Below the pieces are notes generated by a model that saw nothing but the letters and a program-made list of their open reading frames with translations, was not told the DNA's origin and ran no database searches. A stretch of DNA of 51,298 bases, the filler included, from Dirinaria sp. TL-2023a (Eukaryota): assembly GCA_051941275.1 (NCBI GenBank). It is 3 parts of 3 records of this genome, joined end to end, with 100 filler letters (N's around TTAATTAATTAA, not from the genome) between each part and the next. Parts side by side here need not be neighbours in the genome. Positions count along the whole stretch, not along the records: positions 34,293 to 51,298 come from JAVEBF010000458.1; 2 more parts are not named here. The stretch is one strand, 5' to 3'. Positions 25,845 to 46,929 of the stretch are shown one piece after another. The position numbers and the translations under genes are program-made. Positions within the stretch are counted from its first letter, which is position 1. Every line of letters starts with the position of its first letter.

Positions 25845-27952
25845 TCAGAAAGCGCTATGCAGTGGTGGAAATAACACGCCTTCTTGCCCCTGGCCTGTTG
25901 GAACCGTTGGTGTCCCGTATGTCGAATCGGAGCCGAACTTGGTGTTCTCGAGGTTTCGTTTCATTGGATCGACTCCTAGCTGATCTAGCAGATCTTTCAT
26001 TTTCGAAGGCATGTACGGTTGCAGTAATATGCCACAAATTCGGACCGATTCAGAACACAAAAAGATTATCTTATCAGCTTGCTCTTCATCCGCCTTCCAT
26101 GGCGCAGCCTTTTGCATATACTCGTTTGTCTGTAGGAGTTGTTAGAGCCATGCGGTCCGTTGATACTGTGCTCATGGAAAAGCTCAGGAGACGGGGGCTT
26201 CTGACCTTGAATATGCCGTTCATGATCTCTCGCAGCGCTGCGCCTGAATCCAGGTTGGCCATCATTTGAGCTACCTTATCAGGCATTTCGCAAAACCGGT
26301 TTTGGCGTGCCATTGCAGTTCGGTCGTCCACATCAACCTCGCCACGCTCGACAGCACGGCGGACGCTCCAGCCTCTTCCTCGCACAATTCGACTAACCAG
26401 ATTCCCAAGTCCGCCTTGCAGCCCTTTGGTATAGCGCTCGATGATATATGAATTCTCGTAGCTAGCGTCATCTTTCAAGCCTCCGTCGTAGGCAAGATAA
26501 TAACGCATGGTATCTACACCAAAGCGTTCGAGAGCGAAGAAAGGGTTTACCACAATTCCCCTAGATTTTGACATCTTATTATGACCAAGTGTCCAGTGGG
26601 CGTGGGTCAATATTTGACGCGGGAGAGGAAGATCAAGCGCCATTAGAAACGCTGGCCAGTAGATGCAGTGGAATCTCGAAGGCGTCAGGCCAGGATGGGA
26701 AATAATGGGATCTCGAGAGTAACGCACCTAACGATGTCTTTGCCAATCACGTGGCAGTCGGCCGGCCAGCCGCCAGCGTTTTCTTCGCCGGGTATCTGAA
26801 AAGGATAATTGGCTTTCGTAAGGTAGTTGATCAGTGCATCAAGCCAGACGTATATGGTTTGGGAAGTATCGTCAGGTACCGGGATGCCCCAGCTTAGTCT
26901 CTCCATCGGGCGAGACACAGATAGGTCTTGAAGTCCCGACTCGACGTGTTGTACGACATCCTTCATGCGCGTTGAGGGTACGACAAAGTCAGGATTGCGC
27001 TTGTAAAATTCCAGTAGCCTGTCTTTGAACGTTGATAGGCGGAAGTGGTAAGTCTTTTCCGATGTCCACTCAACCTCGGTTCCAGTTTCAGACGAGGCCT
27101 GCCACATGTCAGTCATAAAGGTCGACAAAATTCCATCCGCAGCTTATCTGTACCATAAATTTCCTTCCAGTGGAAGGATCAAGAGCAAGCTCAACAGCTG
27201 AAGGAGGATAAAAAGTTTCATCATTGACAGAGTACCAGCCTTCATACTTTGATGCGTAGATATGGCCCCGCTCTCGCAGCAATAGCTTCATAATGTTAGA
27301 CTTAGGAATCGAGGATAGCGGGGCAATACGTACTAACCCAGAAGTGCTGGACAGCAAGTCGATGATCTGGCTCCGATGTCCGTATGAAGTGGTCGCGGTC
27401 TATATTAGCCTTCTGCGCCAGTGTCTGCGACACTCTTAGCTTTTGTTGAAATGCTGTTCAACTAGTCTCCTACATCAAAGGGCTCGTGCATCTTGTCGCA
27501 GAAAGAGCGCACATCTTGTCCAGCTTTCGTTGCCGCTCGCTGGATCTAGCAATTTTGAAGCGGTATAAGTGACGATTCGGATTTCGGAATGAACCCGAGC
27601 TTACTTTCATGCCATGCTCGTCGGTCCCTGTACATAGCACAGCGTTCTGTCCACAGAGTTTGTGCCATCGCTTCAATATGTCCGCGAGGATTAGTGTATA
27701 GAGATGACCGATATGTGGCGCTGTTTAATTTTCAGCAGTTGTATATAGCTAGGTTCTAATCGAGAGCTTGTCACCTGCGTTAACATAGAAAATAGGACTT
27801 GTAACGTAGTACGGCTTGATGCAATTTGTAGGCTGCACTTTCGTGTGTTGCTGCCGCCGAGACACGAGCCGCAGCTTGCAACTTTGACAGGCCCATCCTT
27901 TTCCGCGGATTGCTGCAGTAGAGAAAGGCCTGAAAGCTGTTGACGATTTCAT
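25845..27952 (-). CDS. MSM1: Mitochondrial methionyl-tRNA synthetase (multi-intron)
   Basis: Presequence, YYVTSPIFYVNA|APHIGHLY (HIGH), GTDEHG, YEGWYSVNDE, LSVSRP..WGIPVP, YVWLDALINY, IGKDIVR|FHCIYWPAFL and KMSKS. Confidence 0.95.
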
Positions 27953-28178: not shown

Positions 28179-28744
28179 ATGTCGGCTTCGTCCGAGGACA
28201 CGAACGAAGCTACCTCGACAGAGAGTATGTATAATTCGCCATCACCCATCCACGCAGGAGCTGACGCTGGCTATACTAAGCTGCTGAAAGATTTATCGAT
28301 ACCTACTATGAGGCACTAGAGTCTCACAGAGATGCTATTGCCTCCTTCTATATGAAAGCGACCACGCTGCCTGATGGTAAAACTTTTCCTTCAATAGTGT
28401 ACAACGGAAACATCAAAGCGGACGGGGCAGGAATGCAAAAGTTTTTCCAGGAGGAGATGCCTGAAATGCAATTTGACATTCAAGCATTCGACTCTCAATG
28501 TCTCAATCCCAACTATATCCCGCAGGGTACGACAGGCGGCCAGGCAGCGTATGAGAAGAATATGACGATATTAATTACAGTCAGTGGAAGTGTGAAGCTT
28601 GGAAAGTCGCGAACAGCAGCAACAAAAGAATTCAGTGAGAGCTTTGTGCTCGTGCCGAATCGTGATGAAACCGGTCCACGAACACGAGGAAAGCAAGTGA
28701 AAGAATGGGTCATTCAAGCTCAAACATTCAGGGTCGTCGTCTAA
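28179..28744 (+). CDS. NXT1: NTF2-related export factor Nxt1/p15 (intron ~28225-28280)
   Basis: Spliced AERFIDTYYEALE...IASFY, IVYNGN, FDIQAFDSQCLN, ILITVSGSV, FSESFVLVP and WVIQAQTFRVV: an NTF2-like pattern. Confidence 0.8.
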
Positions 28745-34192: not shown

Positions 34193-34292
34193 NNNNNNNN
34201 NNNNNNNNNNNNNNNNNNNNNNNNNNNNNNNNNNNNTTAATTAATTAANNNNNNNNNNNNNNNNNNNNNNNNNNNNNNNNNNNNNNNNNNNN
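34193..34292. other. Assembly gap: 44 N + TTAATTAATTAA linker + 44 N
   Basis: Seen directly. It abuts a poly-A run of about 33 nt inside a TVP23 intron. Confidence 0.97.
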
Positions 34293-34327
<35 letters not shown>

Positions 34328-34338
34328 AAGAAACTCAC

Positions 34339-34987
34339 CAATCAAAATCAACCAGATCGGATTCCGGAAGCGGATGATCGCCAGCACGCCCAGCACGATC
34401 CACAGCCCGGGCTGGCAATACAGCGCCAGCCAGAAAAACCGCTTGTCGGTCATATTCTGGCTCGGTCGGGTTTGTCCGTGCTCGTCCGTGCCTTCGCCTG
34501 ACCGGTCCTGCGATTCGAACACCCAGTGAGAGTCGCCCGACGCCGTGTCCACTTCGTTCCACCATCTCAGCCCCACGAGCCGCCGCCCGGCGATGTTTTT
34601 CAGGTAGTAGAAATCGGTCGCGAGCAGGAGCATGGTGATTATGAAGATGAAGACGCTGGGAGCGGATGGTTAGCTGCCGGTTTTTAAGGTTGGGGGGGGG
34701 GGGGAGGCCATACAAGTTCTTGGAGAAACCGGGGATGTAGATGCCGAAGAGATAGATTAGGAGGGATGCTGCGTTTTGATGGTCAGCAAGCAATGTTCCT
34801 CATCTTTTTCATCTGTCGAGTCTTTAAAGGGATATTTTTTATTTTTTATTTTTTTTTTTCCTTCAATGCAGCACATGTGAGATCTTATCCTACCAATTCG
34901 AAATCCTAGGAAGCAGAGCAGCGTGATTGGGTGTGAGGAGAGACGCCAACTCAGATCGCCTGGGCGGGGCTGTCGCTGCTGCTCCAT
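34339..34987 (-). CDS. TVP23: Golgi membrane protein Tvp23; final exon lost in the assembly gap
   Basis: [49 protein letters not shown] and [17 protein letters not shown] donor near 34338 runs into poly-T and the gap. Confidence 0.92.
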
Positions 34988-36214: not shown

Positions 36215-38228
36215 TCATCTTTTCTCGGTGAGGTATTGGTAGGATTCCACAAATTTCTTCAGCGACTCTGGGCCGTCCGAGCCTTTGCAGTTGTCAGACG
36301 GATGACCTTGAGGGGCTCATTAGAGGGCTTACCATAGGGATATTCCTCAGGCACGATATCTTTGGTGCTCTCAAGATGATGCAGTAGCGGGGTGAAGATC
36401 TTCCAACTGGCCTCCAATTCATCCTCTCGTACAGAAAGCGAGTAATCTCCCATCAATGCGTCGAGCAGCAATGCTTCGTACGCTTCGGGCAAATCAGGGT
36501 CTTCCACAATGCCTTTGTAGGTAAGATCTAGCTCGGTGGCCACAGTCTTGAGCTCCAGACCTGGATCCTTGGCGTTCATTTTCAGGCGGACCCCCTCTTT
36601 GGGCTGGATTTGGATGATGAGCTCGTTGTGCATCGTATGCTCGAGCATAGCTGCCGTGGTGTCTTTGAGTTGGATGCGGATCTCCGTTTTGGATTCTCCG
36701 GTTGCTGTCTGAATGAGCTTATCATTCCCGCATCATGGGGAGATTTGGATACCTTTTCCGGCTTTAAGGATGAACGGAACGCCTTCCCACCGCGCATTCT
36801 TCACGTAAGCAACGCTTGTACAGAAGGTTGCACATTTTGAATTTTCCAGCACGCTCTCGTCGTCTTTGTATCCGGGCTTTTTTCCGTCCCTAGATTTTCC
36901 ATACTGGCCAAGTATTGTGTTCTTCATTTCTAGTGGCGGTACAAGGCGCAATAAACGTGCCTGCTCGAGCATTAGCCTACCCTCCAGCACAATCCGATGC
37001 TTAACCGACCTTCTCCTGTCGCATGTCTTCTGCAGAAAAGGAGCCTGGACGCTCCATAGCTATCAATGCAAGCATCTGAGTCAGATCTACTATCGTCTCA
37101 GCGGGCTCATTTGAGAGCAGAGACAATTTTACGGTTCTGCATAACATCGCGAAGAATGCCCACGTCGTCAAAATAACCGCCACGACCTTCTGTACCGATA
37201 GCCTCAGTCATCGAGATCTACTAGACACCTTAGTGAATGTCGAATGCTTCAGCAGCGCGAATAGTTCAACTTGAATATTGTCGATACAATCACACGACCA
37301 GACTGCACCAAACATTGGATTGCCGAATCGCAGGACAAGGATATTCTTGACCATCTCCTTTCCAAGATAATGGTCGATCCGGAAGATTTCGTTTTCGCTC
37401 CAGTTTGGTGCTAGCTTTCTGTGTAGCTCGATAGAGCTCTTCAGATCCCTGCCAAATGGCTTTTCAACCTATAATGTATCAGCGAAACGTTCTCGGCGCG
37501 GACTGCTTCTCTGTCTGGCTTACAATGATCCTTGATACTCCTTTCTTAGATTTGCAGCACCTCCTTAATTGTTCAGATACCGGCACATAAACATTCGGGG
37601 GTAAAGCCATATAGAAGAGCCTGTTTTGCGCTTCCCTCTCTTCTGTAAAGCTCTCCATGAGGTCGCGGAGTTCTTCGAAGGATTTGTCACCTCCATCTTT
37701 ATCGATAGAGATGTAGTGACAAAGCCTGCAAAATTCATCACGTGCCTTCTCTTGATCTTCGTCTTCCGCGCTCACACATGACTTGATGTGGTCGATGTGT
37801 TCATCATGGTTCATTGGCGTCAAGTCGAACCCGATCACTCTAATGCCGCGAGGTAGAATGCCTCTTCGGTACTGGAACTTAAGTAAGAGGAAAAGACAGA
37901 GAAGGTCTTTAGAAAAGCTTACGAGATTGCTCAGAGCTGGATACTATGACAGGGTGTAAGGTACAGGAGACTCGATCAGATTATCACAGTGCGTACAAGC
38001 TTTTTGGTTGCTAAATTACCCGATGCTCCTAACAGTACAATGACCGTATTTTCCTCGAGCCGATGGCTAGAAGGGAAAGAAAAGGCTTTTTGTCAGCGTA
38101 TTTGCCGTGACCTGGACCACGTATGCTCATGAAATGGACATTATCGTTGATTCAAACAAAATGCAATATGAGAGAACGTTCAAAGCTTACTTCTGATCGT
38201 CCTCAGACGCTACTTGTCCCTTTGCCAT
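36215..38228 (-). CDS. Divergent glucose-6-phosphate dehydrogenase (many short exons, including 21-nt exon YPALSNL)
   Basis: [91 protein letters not shown] and [14 protein letters not shown]. The frame is intact after splicing. Confidence 0.92.
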
Positions 38229-38783: not shown

Positions 38784-41700
38784 CTACGGCGATCTGGAGC
38801 TTCCCCCCTTTCCAAATTTGAGGATCAGCTTTGGCCTTTTCTCGGGTTCGGTGGGTGGCTGAGCTGACAGCAGCTGGCTCGATGAAGAGCCAGACGACAG
38901 TGACGAGGCTCCACTCGGTAGAGATGGCGTTTCCTTTTTAGGAGGCTTGAGTGTAAAAGATCGCTTGACGGCAACAGGTGGCGGCATAGTAGCCGGAACA
39001 TTGCTGTTGCTCGTTTCACGGGCCTCTCCAGCATTGGCAAACTTGGGAGTAATAAGCGTTGTTGTTGTTGCGTTGCGGGGTTGCAGTGTAGTTATGCGCT
39101 TAGTCCGGACACGTGAAGCCTTCGAGAAACGGACCTTGCCCTACAGTAATAAGCTCGTTAGTATCGTGTTACTATTAAAGCCTTGGTGTAAACAAGTAAC
39201 GTACCTTCCCGACCTTCGAGCATGCCCAGTACCGAGGGTAATTGAGCACTACCAACATACTCGATATAGCCGGATATAATGTAGCACAGATGTCTAGGAG
39301 CTGAACCATTTCGCTCAATGAGATTATTGGTGACGAAGTTGCGCCCCATAAACCGACCTCAAACTCTTCGTTACCATCCAGCTCAGCTTTTAATGCTTCT
39401 ATCGCTCCAGGTATGGTCTGTTTTCGCTCTAGCTCGAGCTTTCGGGCTTCCGTGGACGTCTCTTGTTCTATGGTTAAGCCATCGTGGTCTGTCACAGTTG
39501 CAGCTGCGGCATCAGAGCTGTCGCCTATGGCAGCGGAGCCCAAGAGTTTTCCCAGGAGCCCAAGCATCCTCTGACGCATGTAAGCGGAAGGATCGGTGCC
39601 TAAAACTACAAAAAACCATCGGAGGATTGCGTTCCTCTTCAATAATCCTATCTTAACCAGGCTTTCGAAAGCTTTAAGCCTAAGGTTGTCTGCTATGCCT
39701 TCTCGCGTATACATCAAGAAGTCTAATAGGTCGAGACTGACGGCACCTGCTTGGGCCAGCTGCAATTTGCAGTCTAGAGATGTTCGTGACAGGATATTAT
39801 CGTGAGACGGAATCCACTCATCGATACGACGATATCTGTCTATCTCCTCAAGGCATGCTGTATGAAAATGCAGATCGTCTCCATCATCGTCCTGCATGTA
39901 ATCATCGCTGTCAACAGGTGCTGGTTTCGTGGACATGGCTTCAGCGAGCGACCCCATCAGAATTGCAAGATAATGTGAGTCAGAGAACTGACTCAGCGTC
40001 AGCTAGAATTTTGCATATTGCCTATTATGTGTTCTCACCTCATTGTTAGAATTGTCATTATATCTCAGCTTCTCAAATAAGAATTTTCTGGCTCTTATTG
40101 GCGAAGTTCTACCGTTATCGCGGACCTTTGCTACCGCTTGTGGTATGGCACACTGGATGTAATATGCGGCACGATCTGAAAAGTCGTTTGGCTTGGGCAT
40201 CTTCGAATCGGGGAAGCAAAAAAGCTCTTCGAATGCCTTCTCAAGATGATGTAAACCAATCCAATCGAATTCCTGTTTTGCTTGCTTATGTAAGGCTAAG
40301 GCAGCGGCGGTTCGTATACCATGGAAGTATCGTCGATCCATAAGGGTCCGGACGAATATCGTAGATAGGAGCGGAAGTGCATTCCTGTCCGCCATATACT
40401 GAATGGACTGCTCACGGTTAATTTTGCTGAAGCTGGAGTGGCCTGCTATGATTTACCTCAAGCTGAGCGACCACGTCACGATCTTGCTGTAACTGCGACA
40501 GGTACATGTAACCCGGCATTTGAATGTCCATCTTGCAAATCCATTCAAAATCGGCATCCATCCGTATCCATTCATATGATTCTTGGCTCATCCTGTCTTC
40601 TTCCTCCTTGGTCCAGTCCGACAGTTTCCAATCTTGGATCTCTTCTTCACTCTGCAACACGTCGCCTAGGCAGTATAGGAGGACATCATCATTCCCGTCA
40701 GCAGCATACTCGATCCCTGCAGCAGCCGAAGTTCTTTCCTTCTGCCGTCTGCTACGCTTTAGCCGCTTGTATTTGGTATTGTAAGGAATATCGAATTTAG
40801 TTTGCGCCTCCTTGATTTCGATGATATGTTCGTATGGTGTACCATCAGCTTCGTGTATGCGAATAGTCATCGGACCCTGCCAGACTTAGTACTAATCACT
40901 CACTCGAGAATGGAGTAGGATTCGGAGACCAACTGTAAAGACAGGCTGGACAGCGCCTGCGTATACGCCACGATCGTCTTCTTTTACTTCTCGCATGAAC
41001 GTGTCCTTATCCAAGTCCCGTGCTCCTGCTTCTTCCTGGATCTGACGAACCAACATCTCTACTACCAGCTTCTTCTTATTGAATCTCTGCGATACCTGGA
41101 ACCTTGGACACCCAGCGCCGTAAACCCATTGCGTCATGAAGACGTCCATTTTGGTGTGACCGAGTTTCTCGCACTGCTTGATGAAGTAATTCGTGTTGAT
41201 AGCAGCATTAACCATATCACCCACCTTGGCGTTAAGGAAGAGTCTCATTATGATCCGTGAAAGTCCGGTAGAGCCACCGGCTTTGTGTAGCCTCCTGTCG
41301 AGTATAAAGAGTACTAGCGGTGCTTTGAGCTCCATAAATTCAAGCTCAAACGGGTCCAGCGCAAGAATCGAACCCAGTTCATAAAGCGGCGGTCTCGCCA
41401 CGTCGAGCTTGAACACCTGATCGGCCGCCTTCTTCTGACGATACCGGTAGTCATTGTTTCCGGACAGTTTTTTTAAGAAGAGATCTGTAATGAAATACGC
41501 TATACCAACGACCACCCATGTATCTTCAGGGGATTCTGGTATGATGTTGATGCCCATCCACTGCACGGCCAAAGAATGAACCAATTGACGGGTTACTGAG
41601 TCTAAAGGCTCAATGATATCTTCTGAAAATAGAAGCCGACTGCTACATATTGACAACGAGGCTGTATCGTTAACATGTGCGGCATTGTCATCCACAAAGC

Positions 41701-42958
41701 AGAGCTTGTAGGTCCCAAATGGGTAAGAGCCATAATTGATAATGAAGAAGTCTAAGGCCTACAAGCATATCAGCACGACATTTTGTAAAGGTAAATTCAG
41801 GAAATCCTACCATGGCTATTGGAAGACACGTGTTTTTTAAATCGTCAGTTCTGCCTGGGAGACAGAATCCATACGTCCCAATAGCATTTTGCCCAAACCT
41901 ATCATCTTCTTCCCCTTCGCGCAATTCTCCGAGATCGACACGCTCGAATGGCCCAATCGCAAAACCAACATGATGAGCAGCGATCGGAACTGCGCAGTGG
42001 AAAGAGGTGATTTTTTTAGAAGAATCGGTTGCATTGACGATCTAAACGTGTAAGTCAAGGTCTGCTAGATGATTAGTTATCTCACCTCATCTGTGAGCTC
42101 TCCTGTGCCAACCACGACCAGATCTAACAATTTATCTTCCTCACTAAAGCTATCCCGCGACAGCGTGGACTCCTCAGTAGCGTGTTGTCCATTCACACCA
42201 TTCAAGGAAGACATTTTGGATGACATTTGAGACTGCCATATTGCATCTCCAATAGTTCTAGAGCATGTGATCGAGATGTCCCAAGTGCATCGAGACGTCA
42301 GCTTATCAATGCATGGAAACAAGCAGCATGCTGCCCCTGTTGCTGCAGATTGTGTGGTATAGGCATGAGGGTAGCGAAGGTCTGCTTGATCCCATCCAAC
42401 GAACTGCATTCCATCCCGGATCTTATCAATTGTATACTCCACAGTCACAGTCACAGAAGTAAATTGTGAGCCTTGTTCTACCACTGCTCGCGTCCCTTGA
42501 GTTATATCCAGCGAAGACGCATCAGCTGCGTCCTTCTTTGGTAGAAGCACCTTCTGCGCTTCCACTGTGAAGGGATCCAGATCATCTATCTTGACACTTT
42601 TGGGAAACGTTATGACCAGCTCCTCTTCAGGAGGGTCTTTCAACGTGTCTTGTATCTTGCTCTTGAGCATTTTCCATTGCCGAACTCCAGCTTTCCATGA
42701 TAAATTTGCTTCCGTGTAGGGATCATCGTAAGTATAATTCGAGCAGGCTTTTCCATTGACGAAGACACGTTTGATGTCGCACTGCCTGCAGTTGAGGCTG
42801 ATACTTTTAAGCCCCTTGAGATGGGGATTGATGTTAATTTCAGTCTTGCCGCGCAAGCTGCGGGACAGCAAATCGATTTCGAGTTCAACCTTCTGATGCA
42901 ATATCGAAAAAGGCGTCTCAGGAACAGAGTCGCTAGAGGTCACGATCAAGCCAACCAT
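38784..42958 (-). CDS. TAF2: TFIID subunit 2 (M1-aminopeptidase-like fold, non-catalytic), multi-exon
   Basis: HQKVELEID, LNCRQC, FPCID, LKAPLVLFILDRRL, QWVYGAGCP, GPMTIRIHEADGTPYEH, EWIRMDADFEW, QLQQDRDVVAQ, YNDNSNNE and RYRRIDEWIPS. Confidence 0.95.
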
Positions 42959-43471
42959 GTTGCCCGGATTGTATCGACAATGCTGTTGCAATCTGCAGAT
43001 TCCTCTTTTGGCCTCACTTCCAGCGATATGGAACAATGGTGTACATCGAGTGTTCCATTGTCAAGCGGTCTGGAACACTGCATTGCTTGGATGACCGACG
43101 TTTTGAAGAGCAACTAATATCTATAGGCATCACGAAAGCCGATCGTAGTAGTCAATTCACCGGTCTTGTCGTTTTGCACAAAACCTCAGAAATTACCTTG
43201 ATATAATGGGCTGCCATGCGGAAGGAAAGGTACCGAGGTACCTTAACGTGCCTTAGGGTTATTGTACCGAGGGTAGGTACCTTACCTTACCTGACCAACT
43301 TAGGTCGCACCCTGAACCCTATACAAGTACCCATAGCCAAACTCATTAATACCTTACGGTTTCAGGACTCTCATGTATGGCCGCTTCTGTCCAAATTCTG
43401 GAAGCATCCCTGACTCAGAACAATTACAATGCTTAAATTACCGACCGAAGCACTTTCGAATCGGTTGCTTG

Positions 43472-44982
43472 CTAAGTCCGACTTCCCCTACGAAATCTAC
43501 GCCGACTCCTCGCACTGGCTGCTAACGCATCCTGCGTCAGAATATCCCCCGGTAGTTCGAAAGGTTTGTCCTTCAAGACCGGCAGTGGCTGTCCGAATGC
43601 GAGTCGTATTCTCCCTCGACGATGCTTGCCGAGAGCAGCATCACGGAGGTATGGTTTAGAATAGAAGGAGGTAAAAGGTTTCTGTTCTGGCGGAGGCTGA
43701 GCAGGCTTAGGCAACGCTGTTTTGCTCCGCACCCGTTGGCCAGTTGCTGAACTTGCTTCCTGGTGTAGCTGACGAGCAGCACACGCGTCGACATCGCTGC
43801 CATCCGGTGCATCGCCATCGTTCATATCCTCTGACGCGGCCTCGCCCTCTTCAGCCATCAGCCTCTCTTCCCTTTCAGTCTTCCGCCGCTTCTCTTCTTC
43901 CTTCCATTCTCTAAACTTTTCCAAAATTAGTTCAATCTCACGAATGAAGTAATCCCGTTTTGGCTCGAACGATTTCTTCCCACCATCAGTAACGCCGTTG
44001 ATTCCCATGATTTTGAGCCAGTCATGACCTTTGAGACTTTCTAGCAAGCGCTCGAGCTGCACTTTTTCATGCATGGCTCGCTCTTTCTCGATGTTGCGCA
44101 GCTGTTTCTCTTGCCTCTCAGCCCGCCGATGGGCCTTAGCATAAAAGTTATCGTCTAATGGATCTTGCAGGCCCACGAATGTGCTGCGATCGATGGTGGA
44201 GAAATCGACTCGTTGAACATCAACAGGCGCGATTGTGCCGTCCAAATCTGAGCTTGCGCTTTGCACCACGTTATTCGTAGTCGGAATCTTAGGAGCCCTT
44301 GAGGGTCGAACCCTATTGAACGCATTACGAACAGGTGCTGTGCTGGGCGGAGCGGGAGCGGGAGCGGTGGTTGTAACAGGTTCGTCGATGATCTGTATGC
44401 GAGTCTCTGCAGTCAAAGCATCTTCGGCGATCAGCGGAAGATCAGTAGCACTTGAAGAATTCACGTACCGGGCCCTTTCGGCTCATCATTAATAAGCTCT
44501 TCGTAATTTGGGAAGTACCACGAGAGTTCGCTCTTCGACCTGGAACCGCCATTCTGGGAGCGTAATGTCCTTTTGTCGCTCTCTTTCACCGCATCACTTG
44601 GACATTCAGACTTGGAATTGGCCGGATTTGCGGATTCATTGCCATTGGTGACCACCCGGTCCGAAGTGTTGTTTTGTTGCACAGGGTTCAGGCTTCGCGG
44701 TTGCTCCGCCTGCGGCTCCACGGCTCTCGTGACCAACTTGCCCGTGCCTGCACCAGACCCCGTACCATTGCTATGGGACCTCGCCTGAGGTCGCGATGTC
44801 GATGGAGGTGAGAGCCGGTGTCGCTTGCTGGCCTGAGATGGATCTGCTTTGGTAAGGGGATCGCGTGTGCGTTTGCCTAGCCGGATACTGTCGGGGGGAT
44901 CCTGTGGGATAGCGGTCGCAATTGGGTCAAGGCCTCCCCTACGTGAAGAGGAACGCGCCGATGGCCTTGCATAAGCGGCCAT
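43472..44982 (-). CDS. SAS4: SAS acetyltransferase complex subunit Sas4-domain protein (intron 44422-44468)
   Basis: RTLRSQNGGSRSKSELSWYFPNYE, then DPLDDNFYAKAHRRAERQEKQLRNIEKERAMHEKVQLERLLESLKGHDWLKIMG. A 47-nt GTACGT...AAG intron joins the two ORFs. Confidence 0.85.
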
Positions 44983-45444: not shown

Positions 45445-46229
45445 TCATTCGAAGATAAAATCCTTCGTGACCGGCGAGGATGAGAATTCGGGATTGAGCA
45501 AGACACAGGTCAGAAAATAGGCAAGGCCTGCTCGGCGCTTCTCAAGAAACTCGGGTTGAAAACGATCTTGGAGGTCTTTAGCCTTGCTTTCATGCTGCCT
45601 CTTGGGCACGTATAGGACCACCTACTCCAAATACTCTTGGGGGGAAGGAGCGGCATTGCCGCTTTAGAAGATGGGAAGGTTTTCCCCAGCTTTTTGCGCA
45701 AGTCGTCAAAATCGGAGTATCTGGACACACGGGTTTCAGTCCTGAAAGTACAGGCGGGGGCTCTGAATTTATCAACCTTTTCCGAACCACTATTGAGCCT
45801 CCCTGCAAAAGGCGTCAGTTGATGTGGAACACTAGAATGTAGCCCCTGAGAGTTTGTGTGGTGGTAAGAGGAACTTGATGCTAGGGGTGCCTGAAGACTG
45901 ACATCCAATGTGTCGATCTTACAATTCCAAGTTATGTAGTCACCGACGCCCGGCACGCTCCCAGAAACCACGGTATAGGCATTAATGGCAACGGCTTTAG
46001 CCCACAACGGGCTCTTTATGTCCGAGTCGCTTTCCGTATTATCTTCTAGGGTGATTGGCGGCGGCTTGGTAGTTCCGATGGACAAATATGATTCATGACG
46101 GCGATGTTGCCAGTAAATGGGGGTGACGGATGTCGCGTTGTCTTGACCTGCCAAAGGGTCGTGCCTCAACAGCTCCCCAGTGGCGGTACGATGGTGAGGT
46201 GACACACGCTTCTTGTTTCCAGGATCCAT
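45445..46229 (-). CDS. YPT35: PX-domain endosomal/vacuolar adaptor Ypt35-like (3 introns)
   Basis: LWAKAVAINAYTVVSG...YITWNCKIDTLD|GGSIVVRK|RYSDFDDLRKKL..FP...PLLPPKS|..RFQPEFLEKRRAGLAYFLTCVLLNPEFSSSPVTKDFIFE*. Confidence 0.85.
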
Positions 46230-46929
46230 CCATCCATAGAGGCGGAATCCAGCGCGGTGGTCACGTTACCCGATCATTTGGCGGGAACAGTTGTTTTTCA
46301 TGTGAACGAAGACTGTGACTGTGGTCGTGGCGTGAATCAGGTGAGGTAAGGTAAGGTAGGTAATAATGGAATGGCGGGCGAGGCGGGATGGGGAAGCTCG
46401 TATCTCCCCATGGCTCAGAGTTGATGTTCACAGAATTGGGTTTAGTGAACACCCGGCAGAGATCATACTGTCCAATCATTTTACCCCTGCATCGCGCTAT
46501 CTTAGTGTCCGGCTCCCGCGCCGGTAAAGTAAACCCTCTTCACTCTTGGCCGTCTACGATGATCCGTGCAGTGCAGGACATTTTTATCACCGACCCTCCA
46601 TAGGCCTAGTTCGAGAAGCATTCAGCCATTCCACTTTTTTTTTTCCTTCTCCCCCCCAGACTCGAAAGCATTCATTTTTCTTTCGGTGTACTTTAGGCAC
46701 CCGTCTACGAACTCTGTCACTCGTTACCTGCCAAAGAGGCTTCAATTCTCTCGTTGTTTGTGGGATCCACTCCTGGCTTTGGACATACTGTAAGCTCCAA
46801 AATTCCACCTTTTATGCTGTCCTCCCCCCGCCACGCACGGATCCACTCGATCCTTTCTTCTTGCAAACCCTCATGGTTGACGAGTACTCACCAAAGCCTA
46901 GAAGTTTCAACAACTTCCACTCGCTCAAA

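Follow-up and report, generated by a model that had tools for sequence, protein, structure and literature searches.

Eukaryotic glucose-6-phosphate dehydrogenase (G6PD) is the textbook source of NADPH, the reduced form of nicotinamide adenine dinucleotide phosphate (NADP+), and in human G6PD deficiency both Arg72 and the structural NADP+ site are of central importance. When strand beta2 of a Rossmann fold ends with an acidic residue, the unphosphorylated coenzyme, NAD+, is generally selected, and to our knowledge NAD+-specific, NADP-independent G6PDs have so far been characterised in bacteria only. Here we describe a divergent G6PD gene on the minus strand (36215..38228) of a stretch of 51,298 nucleotides, filler included (the window), which joins three parts of three records from the genome of the lichen-forming fungus Dirinaria sp. 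TL-2023a (assembly GCA_051941275.1; order Caliciales, class Lecanoromycetes). Judging by its sequence, the gene is a genuine neofunctionalised G6PD paralog that is specific to a lineage of lichen-forming Lecanoromycetes. Sequence features and analogy with bacterial isozymes suggest, with about even confidence, that its product would not select NADP+, would probably prefer NAD+ and would be independent of NADP+ for its stability.

The closest described systems for such a change are bacterial. In the E. coli enzyme, K18 and R50 provide the binding energy for the 2'-phosphate of the coenzyme, and a mutant with both K18A and R50A no longer tells the two coenzymes apart (PMC4807051). The same source describes a bacterial group III in which another residue often takes the place of the Arg, with Asp frequently found just before it. 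According to PMC8546961, the most NAD+-specific bacterial enzymes are without this Arg, and isozymes of the NAD+ type are found mainly where several copies of zwf are present; eukaryotes were excluded from that survey. Arg72 is placed near the 2'-phosphate in PMC11448927, where a more hydrophobic adenine environment is attributed to the dual-specific enzyme of Leuconostoc mesenteroides.

The Dirinaria gene consists of ten exons and nine introns, all of the GT-AG type and 46–124 nt in size, and its coding sequence (1485 nt, 494 codons) has no internal stop. The intact G6PD that an earlier note on this DNA had placed at 36215-38228 is thus found with the start and stop it gave. Both domains of the family score above the curated Pfam cut-offs: G6PD_N (PF00479, cut-off 22.1) with 68.3 bits in exon 4 and 66.6 bits in exon 5, and G6PD_C (PF02781, cut-off 27) with 64.9 bits in exon 8 and 106.7 bits in exon 9, which identifies the predicted product as a G6PD family member. 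The features of the gene are as follows.

36215..38228, minus strand: whole G6PD-paralog gene, ATG to TGA, 10 exons, 9 GT-AG introns, 494 amino acids
38191..38228, minus strand: exon 1, with the ATG at 38228-38226
37997..38066, minus strand: exon 2, carrying the dinucleotide fingerprint; Asn30 codon (human D42) at 38017-38015
37923..37943, minus strand: exon 3, a 21-nt microexon encoding YPALSNL; joints 37943/37997 and 37871/37923 are present in RNA contigs
37863..37871, minus strand: the two acceptors of intron 3; in-frame exon start at 37871, alternative start at 37863 (AG at 37865-37864)
37524..37871, minus strand: exon 4, strand beta2 with what remains of the coenzyme domain's first half
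37821..37829, minus strand: codons TTC GAC TTG of F58-D59-L60 (human Y70-A71-R72)
37698..37700, minus strand: Lys101 codon (human Y112, a catalytic NADP+ contact)
37271..37468, minus strand: exon 5, conserved motif of the G6PD_N part
37133..37217, minus strand: exon 6; Thr229 codon at 37208-37206 (human K238, structural NADP+ site)
37010..37086, minus strand: exon 7, finishing the codon of the catalytic His of QNH
36753..36960, minus strand: exon 8, with KAGK at its end
36333..36704, minus strand: exon 9; Gln380 codon at 36612-36610 (human R393) and Arg388 codon at 36588-36586 (human Y401)
36215..36282, minus strand: exon 10; Asp475 codon at 36277-36275 (human R487), TGA at 36217-36215

Human numbering was assigned by phmmer alignment to human G6PD chains, in which exon 4 begins at human position 56; the numbers R487, Y503 and W509 are provisional. 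The comparison set comprises 29 rows of the paralog and 116 rows of canonical fungal G6PDs, and the beta2 site is covered in 21 of the paralog rows. Canonical fungal enzymes read GYAR(T/S) at this site, with the Tyr, Ala and Arg invariant in 116/116 rows. The window protein reads IGFDLTPMN, where F58, D59 and L60 correspond to human Y70, A71 and R72, respectively (Asp59 codon GAC, 37826-37824). Sequence and alignment both confirm the switch from GYAR to GFDL with its Asp codon at 37824-37826, which was the core of the earlier note, and extend it to the whole paralog clade: Asp occupies the A71 position in 21/21 rows and Phe the Y70 position in 20/21, whereas the R72 position holds Pro in 17 rows and Leu in the other four. 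R72 is indeed lost, having become Leu or Pro; the Asp aligns with human A71 and not with R72. In an AlphaFold2 model of the clade member P0012, strand beta2 spans residues 38-44 and its final residue is Asp44, the equivalent of D59, so that the strand ends in an acidic residue.

The dinucleotide fingerprint has changed as well, from GASGDLAK to GASGNLA(A/T) in the clade. Asn stands at the D42 position (N30) in 20/21 rows, whereas all canonical rows have Asp, and the K45 position (T33) holds Ala in 17 rows and Thr in three. The window protein (GASGNL) therefore lacks the Asp of the GxxGDLx signature of NADP+-selective G6PDs, and it also lacks the Arg that such enzymes have at the 2'-phosphate position. 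Further along the domain, Ile99 is found in 24/28 paralog rows where canonical enzymes have a Gly, and the Y112 position is Gln in 24 of 28 rows and Lys in four, namely Dirinaria (K101) and three others. Among the positions with at least 95% invariance in the 116 canonical rows, about 70 are altered in the clade. The catalytic NADP+ contacts given in PMC12429737 include S40, D42, L43, K47, R72, S73, Y112 and Y249; three of these eight are altered in the clade (D42, R72 and Y112), R72 and Y112 being on the adenosine side. Because fungal G6PDs have a Ser (Ser28 in the window), and not a Lys, at the position of E. coli K18, the loss of the Arg strips the 2'-phosphate site of its sole positive charge. 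Taken together, the alignment indicates that the adenosine 2'-phosphate pocket is rebuilt in the paralog clade. The absence of an Arg between beta2 and alpha2 agrees with what PMC8546961 gives as the rule for bacterial NAD+-preferring isozymes, a rule drawn without eukaryotes.

To place this replacement among G6PDs at large, we surveyed 150 diverse sequences from a search of 1.84 billion representatives at 50% identity, among which fungal enzymes make up only a few rows. Arg was found at the R72 position in 105 of the 118 representatives that could be aligned at the preceding Gly. Asp and Leu are combined in just one other representative, P0272 (GVDLTPM). Kinship with P0272 can be ruled out, as its identity is 36% with the paralog and 38% with a canonical fungal enzyme; the D-L-T-P-M motif is therefore convergent and has arisen at least twice.

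Changes of a similar extent affect the second coenzyme site. The structural NADP+ site of the human enzyme is formed by eleven residues: K238, K366, R370, R393, Y401, K403, D421, T423, R487, Y503 and W509 (PMC7022596). By alignment, five of the eleven are lost clade-wide, including the whole C-terminal arm. K238 is replaced by Thr in 28/29 paralog rows (T229 in the window), Y401 by Arg in 29/29 (R388), and R487 by Glu or Asp in 25/29 (position 475). The C-terminal arm of some 15–20 residues is gone; a Trp in the tail occurs in none of the 29 paralog rows vs 90 of the 116 canonical ones, and the window protein ends shortly in ...SYQYLTEKR, the Y503/W509 segment being missing. K366, R370, K403, D421 and T423 are retained, so that a part of the human-type site, but not the full set of eleven residues, is present. 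The earlier note had listed Y401, R487 and the shortened tail without its terminal Trp from the window protein, and all three prove to be traits of the clade. R393->Q is likewise present in the window; as a clade trait it fails, since it is confined to the Dirinaria pair and 27/29 paralogs keep the Arg. The K238 replacement was absent from that list. It should be noted that the tails of canonical enzymes also vary: many non-lecanoromycete G6PDs end in -NKL or -NRL, and other endings are found in the canonical copies of Teloschistales and Physcia as well as in all paralogs.

These coenzyme-site changes have also to be read against the possibility that the protein is still an NADP+-dependent isozyme, one that binds the 2'-phosphate in another way and differs mainly in regulation, for example with less inhibition by NADPH, no structural NADP+ or another oligomeric state. 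The residues on the nicotinamide side and those for the substrate are all retained, the single E. coli mutant R50A keeps a 50-fold preference for NADP+ (PMC4807051), NADP+ enzymes without a structural site are described for trypanosomatids (PMC11448927), and the clade has basic residues of its own (R46 in 21/21 rows, K101 in 4/28 and R388 in 29/29). However, the invariant Asp at the end of beta2 would repel a 2'-phosphate, Ser28 offers no Lys at the K18 position, R46, judged by the secondary structure of the model, appears to sit clear of the coenzyme between alpha1 and beta2, and position 101 is Gln in 24/28 rows. We regard such an isozyme as possible, though on the unlikely side.

The substrate side of the protein shows the opposite picture of conservation. 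The substrate-binding and catalytic motifs, including the His of QNH, KxGK, KTEIRIQ, IQP, ELDLTY and PEAYE, are retained in 26-29 of the 29 paralog rows, and the few departing rows look like faulty gene models. All of them are found in the window protein, with KAGK as its form of KxGK, in line with the statement in the earlier note that the sugar-phosphate and catalytic motifs and the splicing are intact; every motif it quoted is present, and all nine introns are spliced in the RNA of a relative (see below). The fold was assessed on the model of P0012, standing in for the window protein. This model, built from a 60-sequence alignment, has a mean predicted local distance difference test score (pLDDT) of 92.2 and a predicted template modelling score (pTM) of 0.90. 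In Foldseek comparisons its best PDB matches are G6PDs, with template modelling (TM) scores of 0.92-0.96, among them the Kluyveromyces lactis enzyme 7E6H (TM 0.96, root-mean-square deviation (rmsd) 1.7 A) and the human enzyme 2BH9/6E08 (TM 0.96, rmsd 1.6-1.7 A). The modelled structure indicates that the paralog has the G6PD fold. Because the fold and every residue that binds glucose 6-phosphate (G6P) or takes part in catalysis are kept, the paralog most likely still oxidises G6P.

The same conservation bears on a second alternative, namely that the paralog is weakly active or inactive and works by protein contacts, for example in heteromers with the canonical G6PD. A precedent is the inactive G6PD4 of Arabidopsis (P0 class), which binds the active G6PD1 (PMC12125578). 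The three altered coenzyme contacts (D42, R72 and Y112), the many clade-specific changes in the beta-sheet and dimer region and the fast evolution of the clade would all suit a protein of this kind. Yet the catalytic His-Asp pair, the Lys and the G6P-binding motifs are kept in 26-29/29 rows across two orders, which would be unexpected without turnover, and we consider this explanation distinctly unlikely.

The distribution of the paralog was followed by similarity searches and phylogeny. With P0002, a database protein 95% identical to the window protein, as the query, matches of 65-73% identity were named only from assemblies of Teloschistales, including Xanthoria, Caloplaca, Gyalolechia, Flavoplaca, Gallowayella and Letrouitia; they are followed, at ~60% identity, by canonical G6PDs from all Pezizomycotina. 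A search with the N-terminal 125 residues of P0012 gave 17 proteins, all of them from Teloschistales. Counting the members of clusters, the clade extends over 29 named Teloschistales taxa, Dirinaria and one further close relative, and in Xanthoria calcicola one member is carried on a contig of 2.26 Mb. In five assemblies (Polycauliona sp. 2, cf. Caloplaca sp. 2, Gyalolechia gomerana, Flavoplaca navasiana and Xanthoria sp. 2), the paralog and a canonical G6PD are found under a shared locus-tag prefix, the canonical partners being drawn from a 103-member cluster of canonical lecanoromycete G6PDs. One member of that cluster, P0142 (492 aa), is labelled 'Inorganic pyrophosphatase' in a metagenome-assembled genome of Watsoniomyces obsoletus, probably by mis-annotation.

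In a maximum-likelihood tree of 60 rows, the paralogs form a clade with full support (100 in the Shimodaira-Hasegawa-like approximate likelihood ratio test, SH-aLRT), so that the phylogeny of GFDL-type homologs called for in the earlier note yields a well-supported group. Its stem measures 1.35 substitutions per site vs 0.01-0.1 on canonical branches. The free 60-row tree leaves the place of the clade among Pezizomycotina unfixed. A tree that unites the paralogs with the canonical copies of Teloschistales and Physcia is 34 log-likelihood units above the quick free tree and has a p-value of 0.94 in the approximately unbiased test (p-AU), as expected if the gene was duplicated in an ancestor shared by Teloschistales and Caliciales. 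Dirinaria is placed as the sister of all Teloschistales paralogs (support 98), matching the species tree. By these trees, the gene most likely underwent duplication in that shared ancestor and then a burst of change. An origin by bacterial transfer or as a retrocopy is ruled out by the nine spliceosomal introns and by the position inside the fungal G6PDs in the tree.

The separate clade and the co-occurrence of both types in five related assemblies uphold the claim of a second, neofunctionalised paralog as far as the lineage is concerned. For Dirinaria itself, the 15 listed members of the canonical cluster, 103 proteins in all, include no canonical G6PD from this genus, and the gene might accordingly be regarded as the sole G6PD of this fungus, a fast-evolving orthologue without an extra copy. 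The five two-type assemblies speak against this, as does Physcia stellaris, which also belongs to Caliciales and has the canonical type; moreover, the reading of the cluster covered only 40 of its 103 members, and the assembly, being derived from a metagenome, could be incomplete. A sole G6PD therefore seems very unlikely.

Expression was assessed in one DNA run and in four RNA runs, the latter all from a single lichen metatranscriptome sample; in each of the five, the share of the gene's sampled words was small (0.05-0.16). The DNA run and three RNA runs were compared with the window; the RNA contigs come from a close relative. RNA contigs X1 (1891 nt) and X2 (2059 nt), ~95% identical in exons, are joined exactly at 9/9 predicted introns, whereas the DNA contig X5 of another relative continues through the introns. 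At exon 1, an RNA contig of run X2 links 38066 to ~38200 through 12 letters that, but for one mismatch, equal the end of exon 1. Two joints are seen at intron 3, an in-frame one, 37871/37923, in X1 (depth 3.6), and an alternative one, 37863/37923, 8 nt downstream, in both X1 (depth 5.1) and X2 (depth 11.1). Use of the acceptor at 37863 shifts the frame and leads to a TAG after seven codons, and it is because of this splice form that the database open reading frame P0002 begins at Met63.

Over the shared part, the window protein and P0002 differ at 19/432 residues and the underlying coding sequence at ~60 nucleotides, with 276 synonymous and 1020 non-synonymous sites, which gives a rough ratio of non-synonymous to synonymous rates (dN/dS) of ~0.12-0.15 between the window and this relative. 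These data indicate that the paralog is transcribed and spliced, as seen in the RNA of the relative, and kept by purifying selection. The view of the earlier note that this is not a pseudogene is borne out by the open frame, the splicing and a dN/dS of ~0.13; neither of the findings it had named as fatal, neutral evolution or a lack of expression, is what we observe. That the gene is a decaying or neutrally drifting duplicate, as its long stem branch, within-clade rates above those of the canonical copy and a frame-shifting splice form might suggest, is barely credible given a frame open over ten exons, identical derived residues fixed in ~30 species, the dN/dS value and a gene that is transcribed and spliced.

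A paralog that no longer selects NADP+ thus remains our preferred reading. Under it, a duplication in the shared ancestor would have been followed by a burst of change and then by maintenance under purifying selection. With no positive charge, a carboxylate at the end of beta2 and hydrophobic neighbours (F58, L/P60 and I99), the coenzyme site would no longer select NADP+, and NAD+ would be preferred or at least accepted. The loss of the structural site would remove any stabilisation or feedback that depends on NADP(H), and the outcome would be an NADH-yielding or NADPH-insensitive oxidative entry into the pentose-phosphate pathway beside the canonical NADPH-producing enzyme. The stronger form of the proposal, a truly NAD+-specific, NADP-independent G6PD that would give Teloschistales and Dirinaria an NADH-yielding, NADPH-insensitive cytosolic entry into this pathway, is held tentatively, at somewhat below an even chance.

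Several observations weigh against this preferred reading. Asp to Asn in the fingerprint also occurs in a few Arg-bearing G6PDs of the diverse set, so that this change is weak evidence alone. The E. coli mutant R50A has a Km (Michaelis constant) for NAD+ of 14.7 mM (PMC4807051); loss of the Arg weakens NAD+ binding too, and could therefore by itself yield a poor enzyme and not an NAD+ enzyme. The Lys at the Y112 position in Dirinaria and three other rows could conceivably reach the 2'-phosphate. The trypanosomatid enzymes use NADP+ without a structural NADP+ being reported (PMC11448927), and the loss of that site is therefore uninformative on the catalytic coenzyme. Across the same species split the clade has evolved ~10x faster than the canonical copy, and the canonical cluster members listed include no Dirinaria entry. 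In the RNA contigs of the relative, the frame-shifting acceptor is at least as deep as the in-frame one, contig depth not being equal to isoform abundance. Finally, the dN/dS value is approximate because only 40 of the 253 differences were listed singly, and the 3'-untranslated region and the coding sequence were parted by hand.

Public gene models of the paralog are poor: most of those from Teloschistales skip the 21-nt microexon 3, and several begin at an internal Met. The database entry for Dirinaria sp., 213 aa long and taken from a metagenome-assembled genome, matches the window translation with 100% identity, two introns being read through, which marks it as a mis-modelled fragment of the gene described here. 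A full-text literature search retrieved no paper linking Teloschistales with glucose-6-phosphate dehydrogenase and, judged by titles and abstracts, none that appears to describe an NAD-dependent G6PD native to a eukaryote.

Matches of neighbouring open frames to known domains and proteins in the window are listed below.

39175-43060, minus strand: TAF2 domains
43472-44482, minus strand: SAS4
45510-46265, minus strand: PX domain
34241-34669, minus strand: DUF846
28280-28744, plus strand: NTF2
26086-27143, minus strand: class-I methionyl-tRNA synthetase

A biosynthetic or metabolic gene cluster was considered as the context of the gene and ruled out, the neighbours in the window being housekeeping genes.

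The clade can be seen as a natural experiment carried out in ~30 species, where the Arg has been removed, an Asp of the NAD-selecting kind gained and the structural arm discarded, while the catalytic residues were conserved. If NAD+ is used, what holds for bacteria, namely that additional zwf copies are of the NAD+ type, would apply to fungi too, the carbon and redox metabolism of lichens would contain an unrecognised node, and a eukaryotic scaffold would be available for engineering the cofactor specificity of G6PD. With the NADPH pool full, an NADH-yielding, NADPH-insensitive entry of the kind proposed might allow carbon from the photobiont to be burnt or converted. If the protein is not an NAD+ enzyme, the clade would still reveal which parts of G6PD are dispensable without loss of selective value.

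Among described systems, the canonical cytosolic G6PD of fungi (Zwf1/GsdA type) shares with the paralog the Pfam domains, the fold and the substrate and catalytic motifs, at ~60% identity to the enzymes of Pezizomycotina. The paralog departs from it in the fingerprint GASGNLA(A/T), in GFD(P/L), in Gln or Lys at Y112, in the altered K238, Y401 and R487 and in the missing C-terminal arm. The comparison with human G6PD (2BH9, 6E08 and 7SNI) is similar: the fold, K366, R370, K403, D421 and T423 are kept, whereas R72, Y112, D42, K238, Y401, R487 and the Y503/W509 tail are altered or missing, and in Dirinaria R393 as well. Like G6PD4 of Arabidopsis, the lichen protein is a divergent, low-profile paralog beside active isoforms; unlike G6PD4, which is of plastid type, is reported as inactive and binds G6PD1 (PMC12125578), the lichen clade has conserved its catalytic and substrate residues.

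The closest functional parallel is offered by the NAD+ or dual-specific isozymes of bacteria, such as those of Komagataeibacter hansenii, Pseudomonas fluorescens, P. putida (G6PDH-B) and Leuconostoc mesenteroides. The lichen clade differs from them in its independent origin among fungal G6PDs and in its nine spliceosomal introns. Its Arg position holds Leu or Pro vs His in P. putida G6PDH-B, and it has also lost the eukaryote-type structural NADP+ site. In common with the bacterial isozymes, it would be an extra isozyme beside an Arg-bearing one, it has no Arg between beta2 and alpha2, it carries an Asp at the preceding position, as in bacterial group III, and it has a more hydrophobic adenine environment (PMC4807051, PMC8546961 and PMC11448927).

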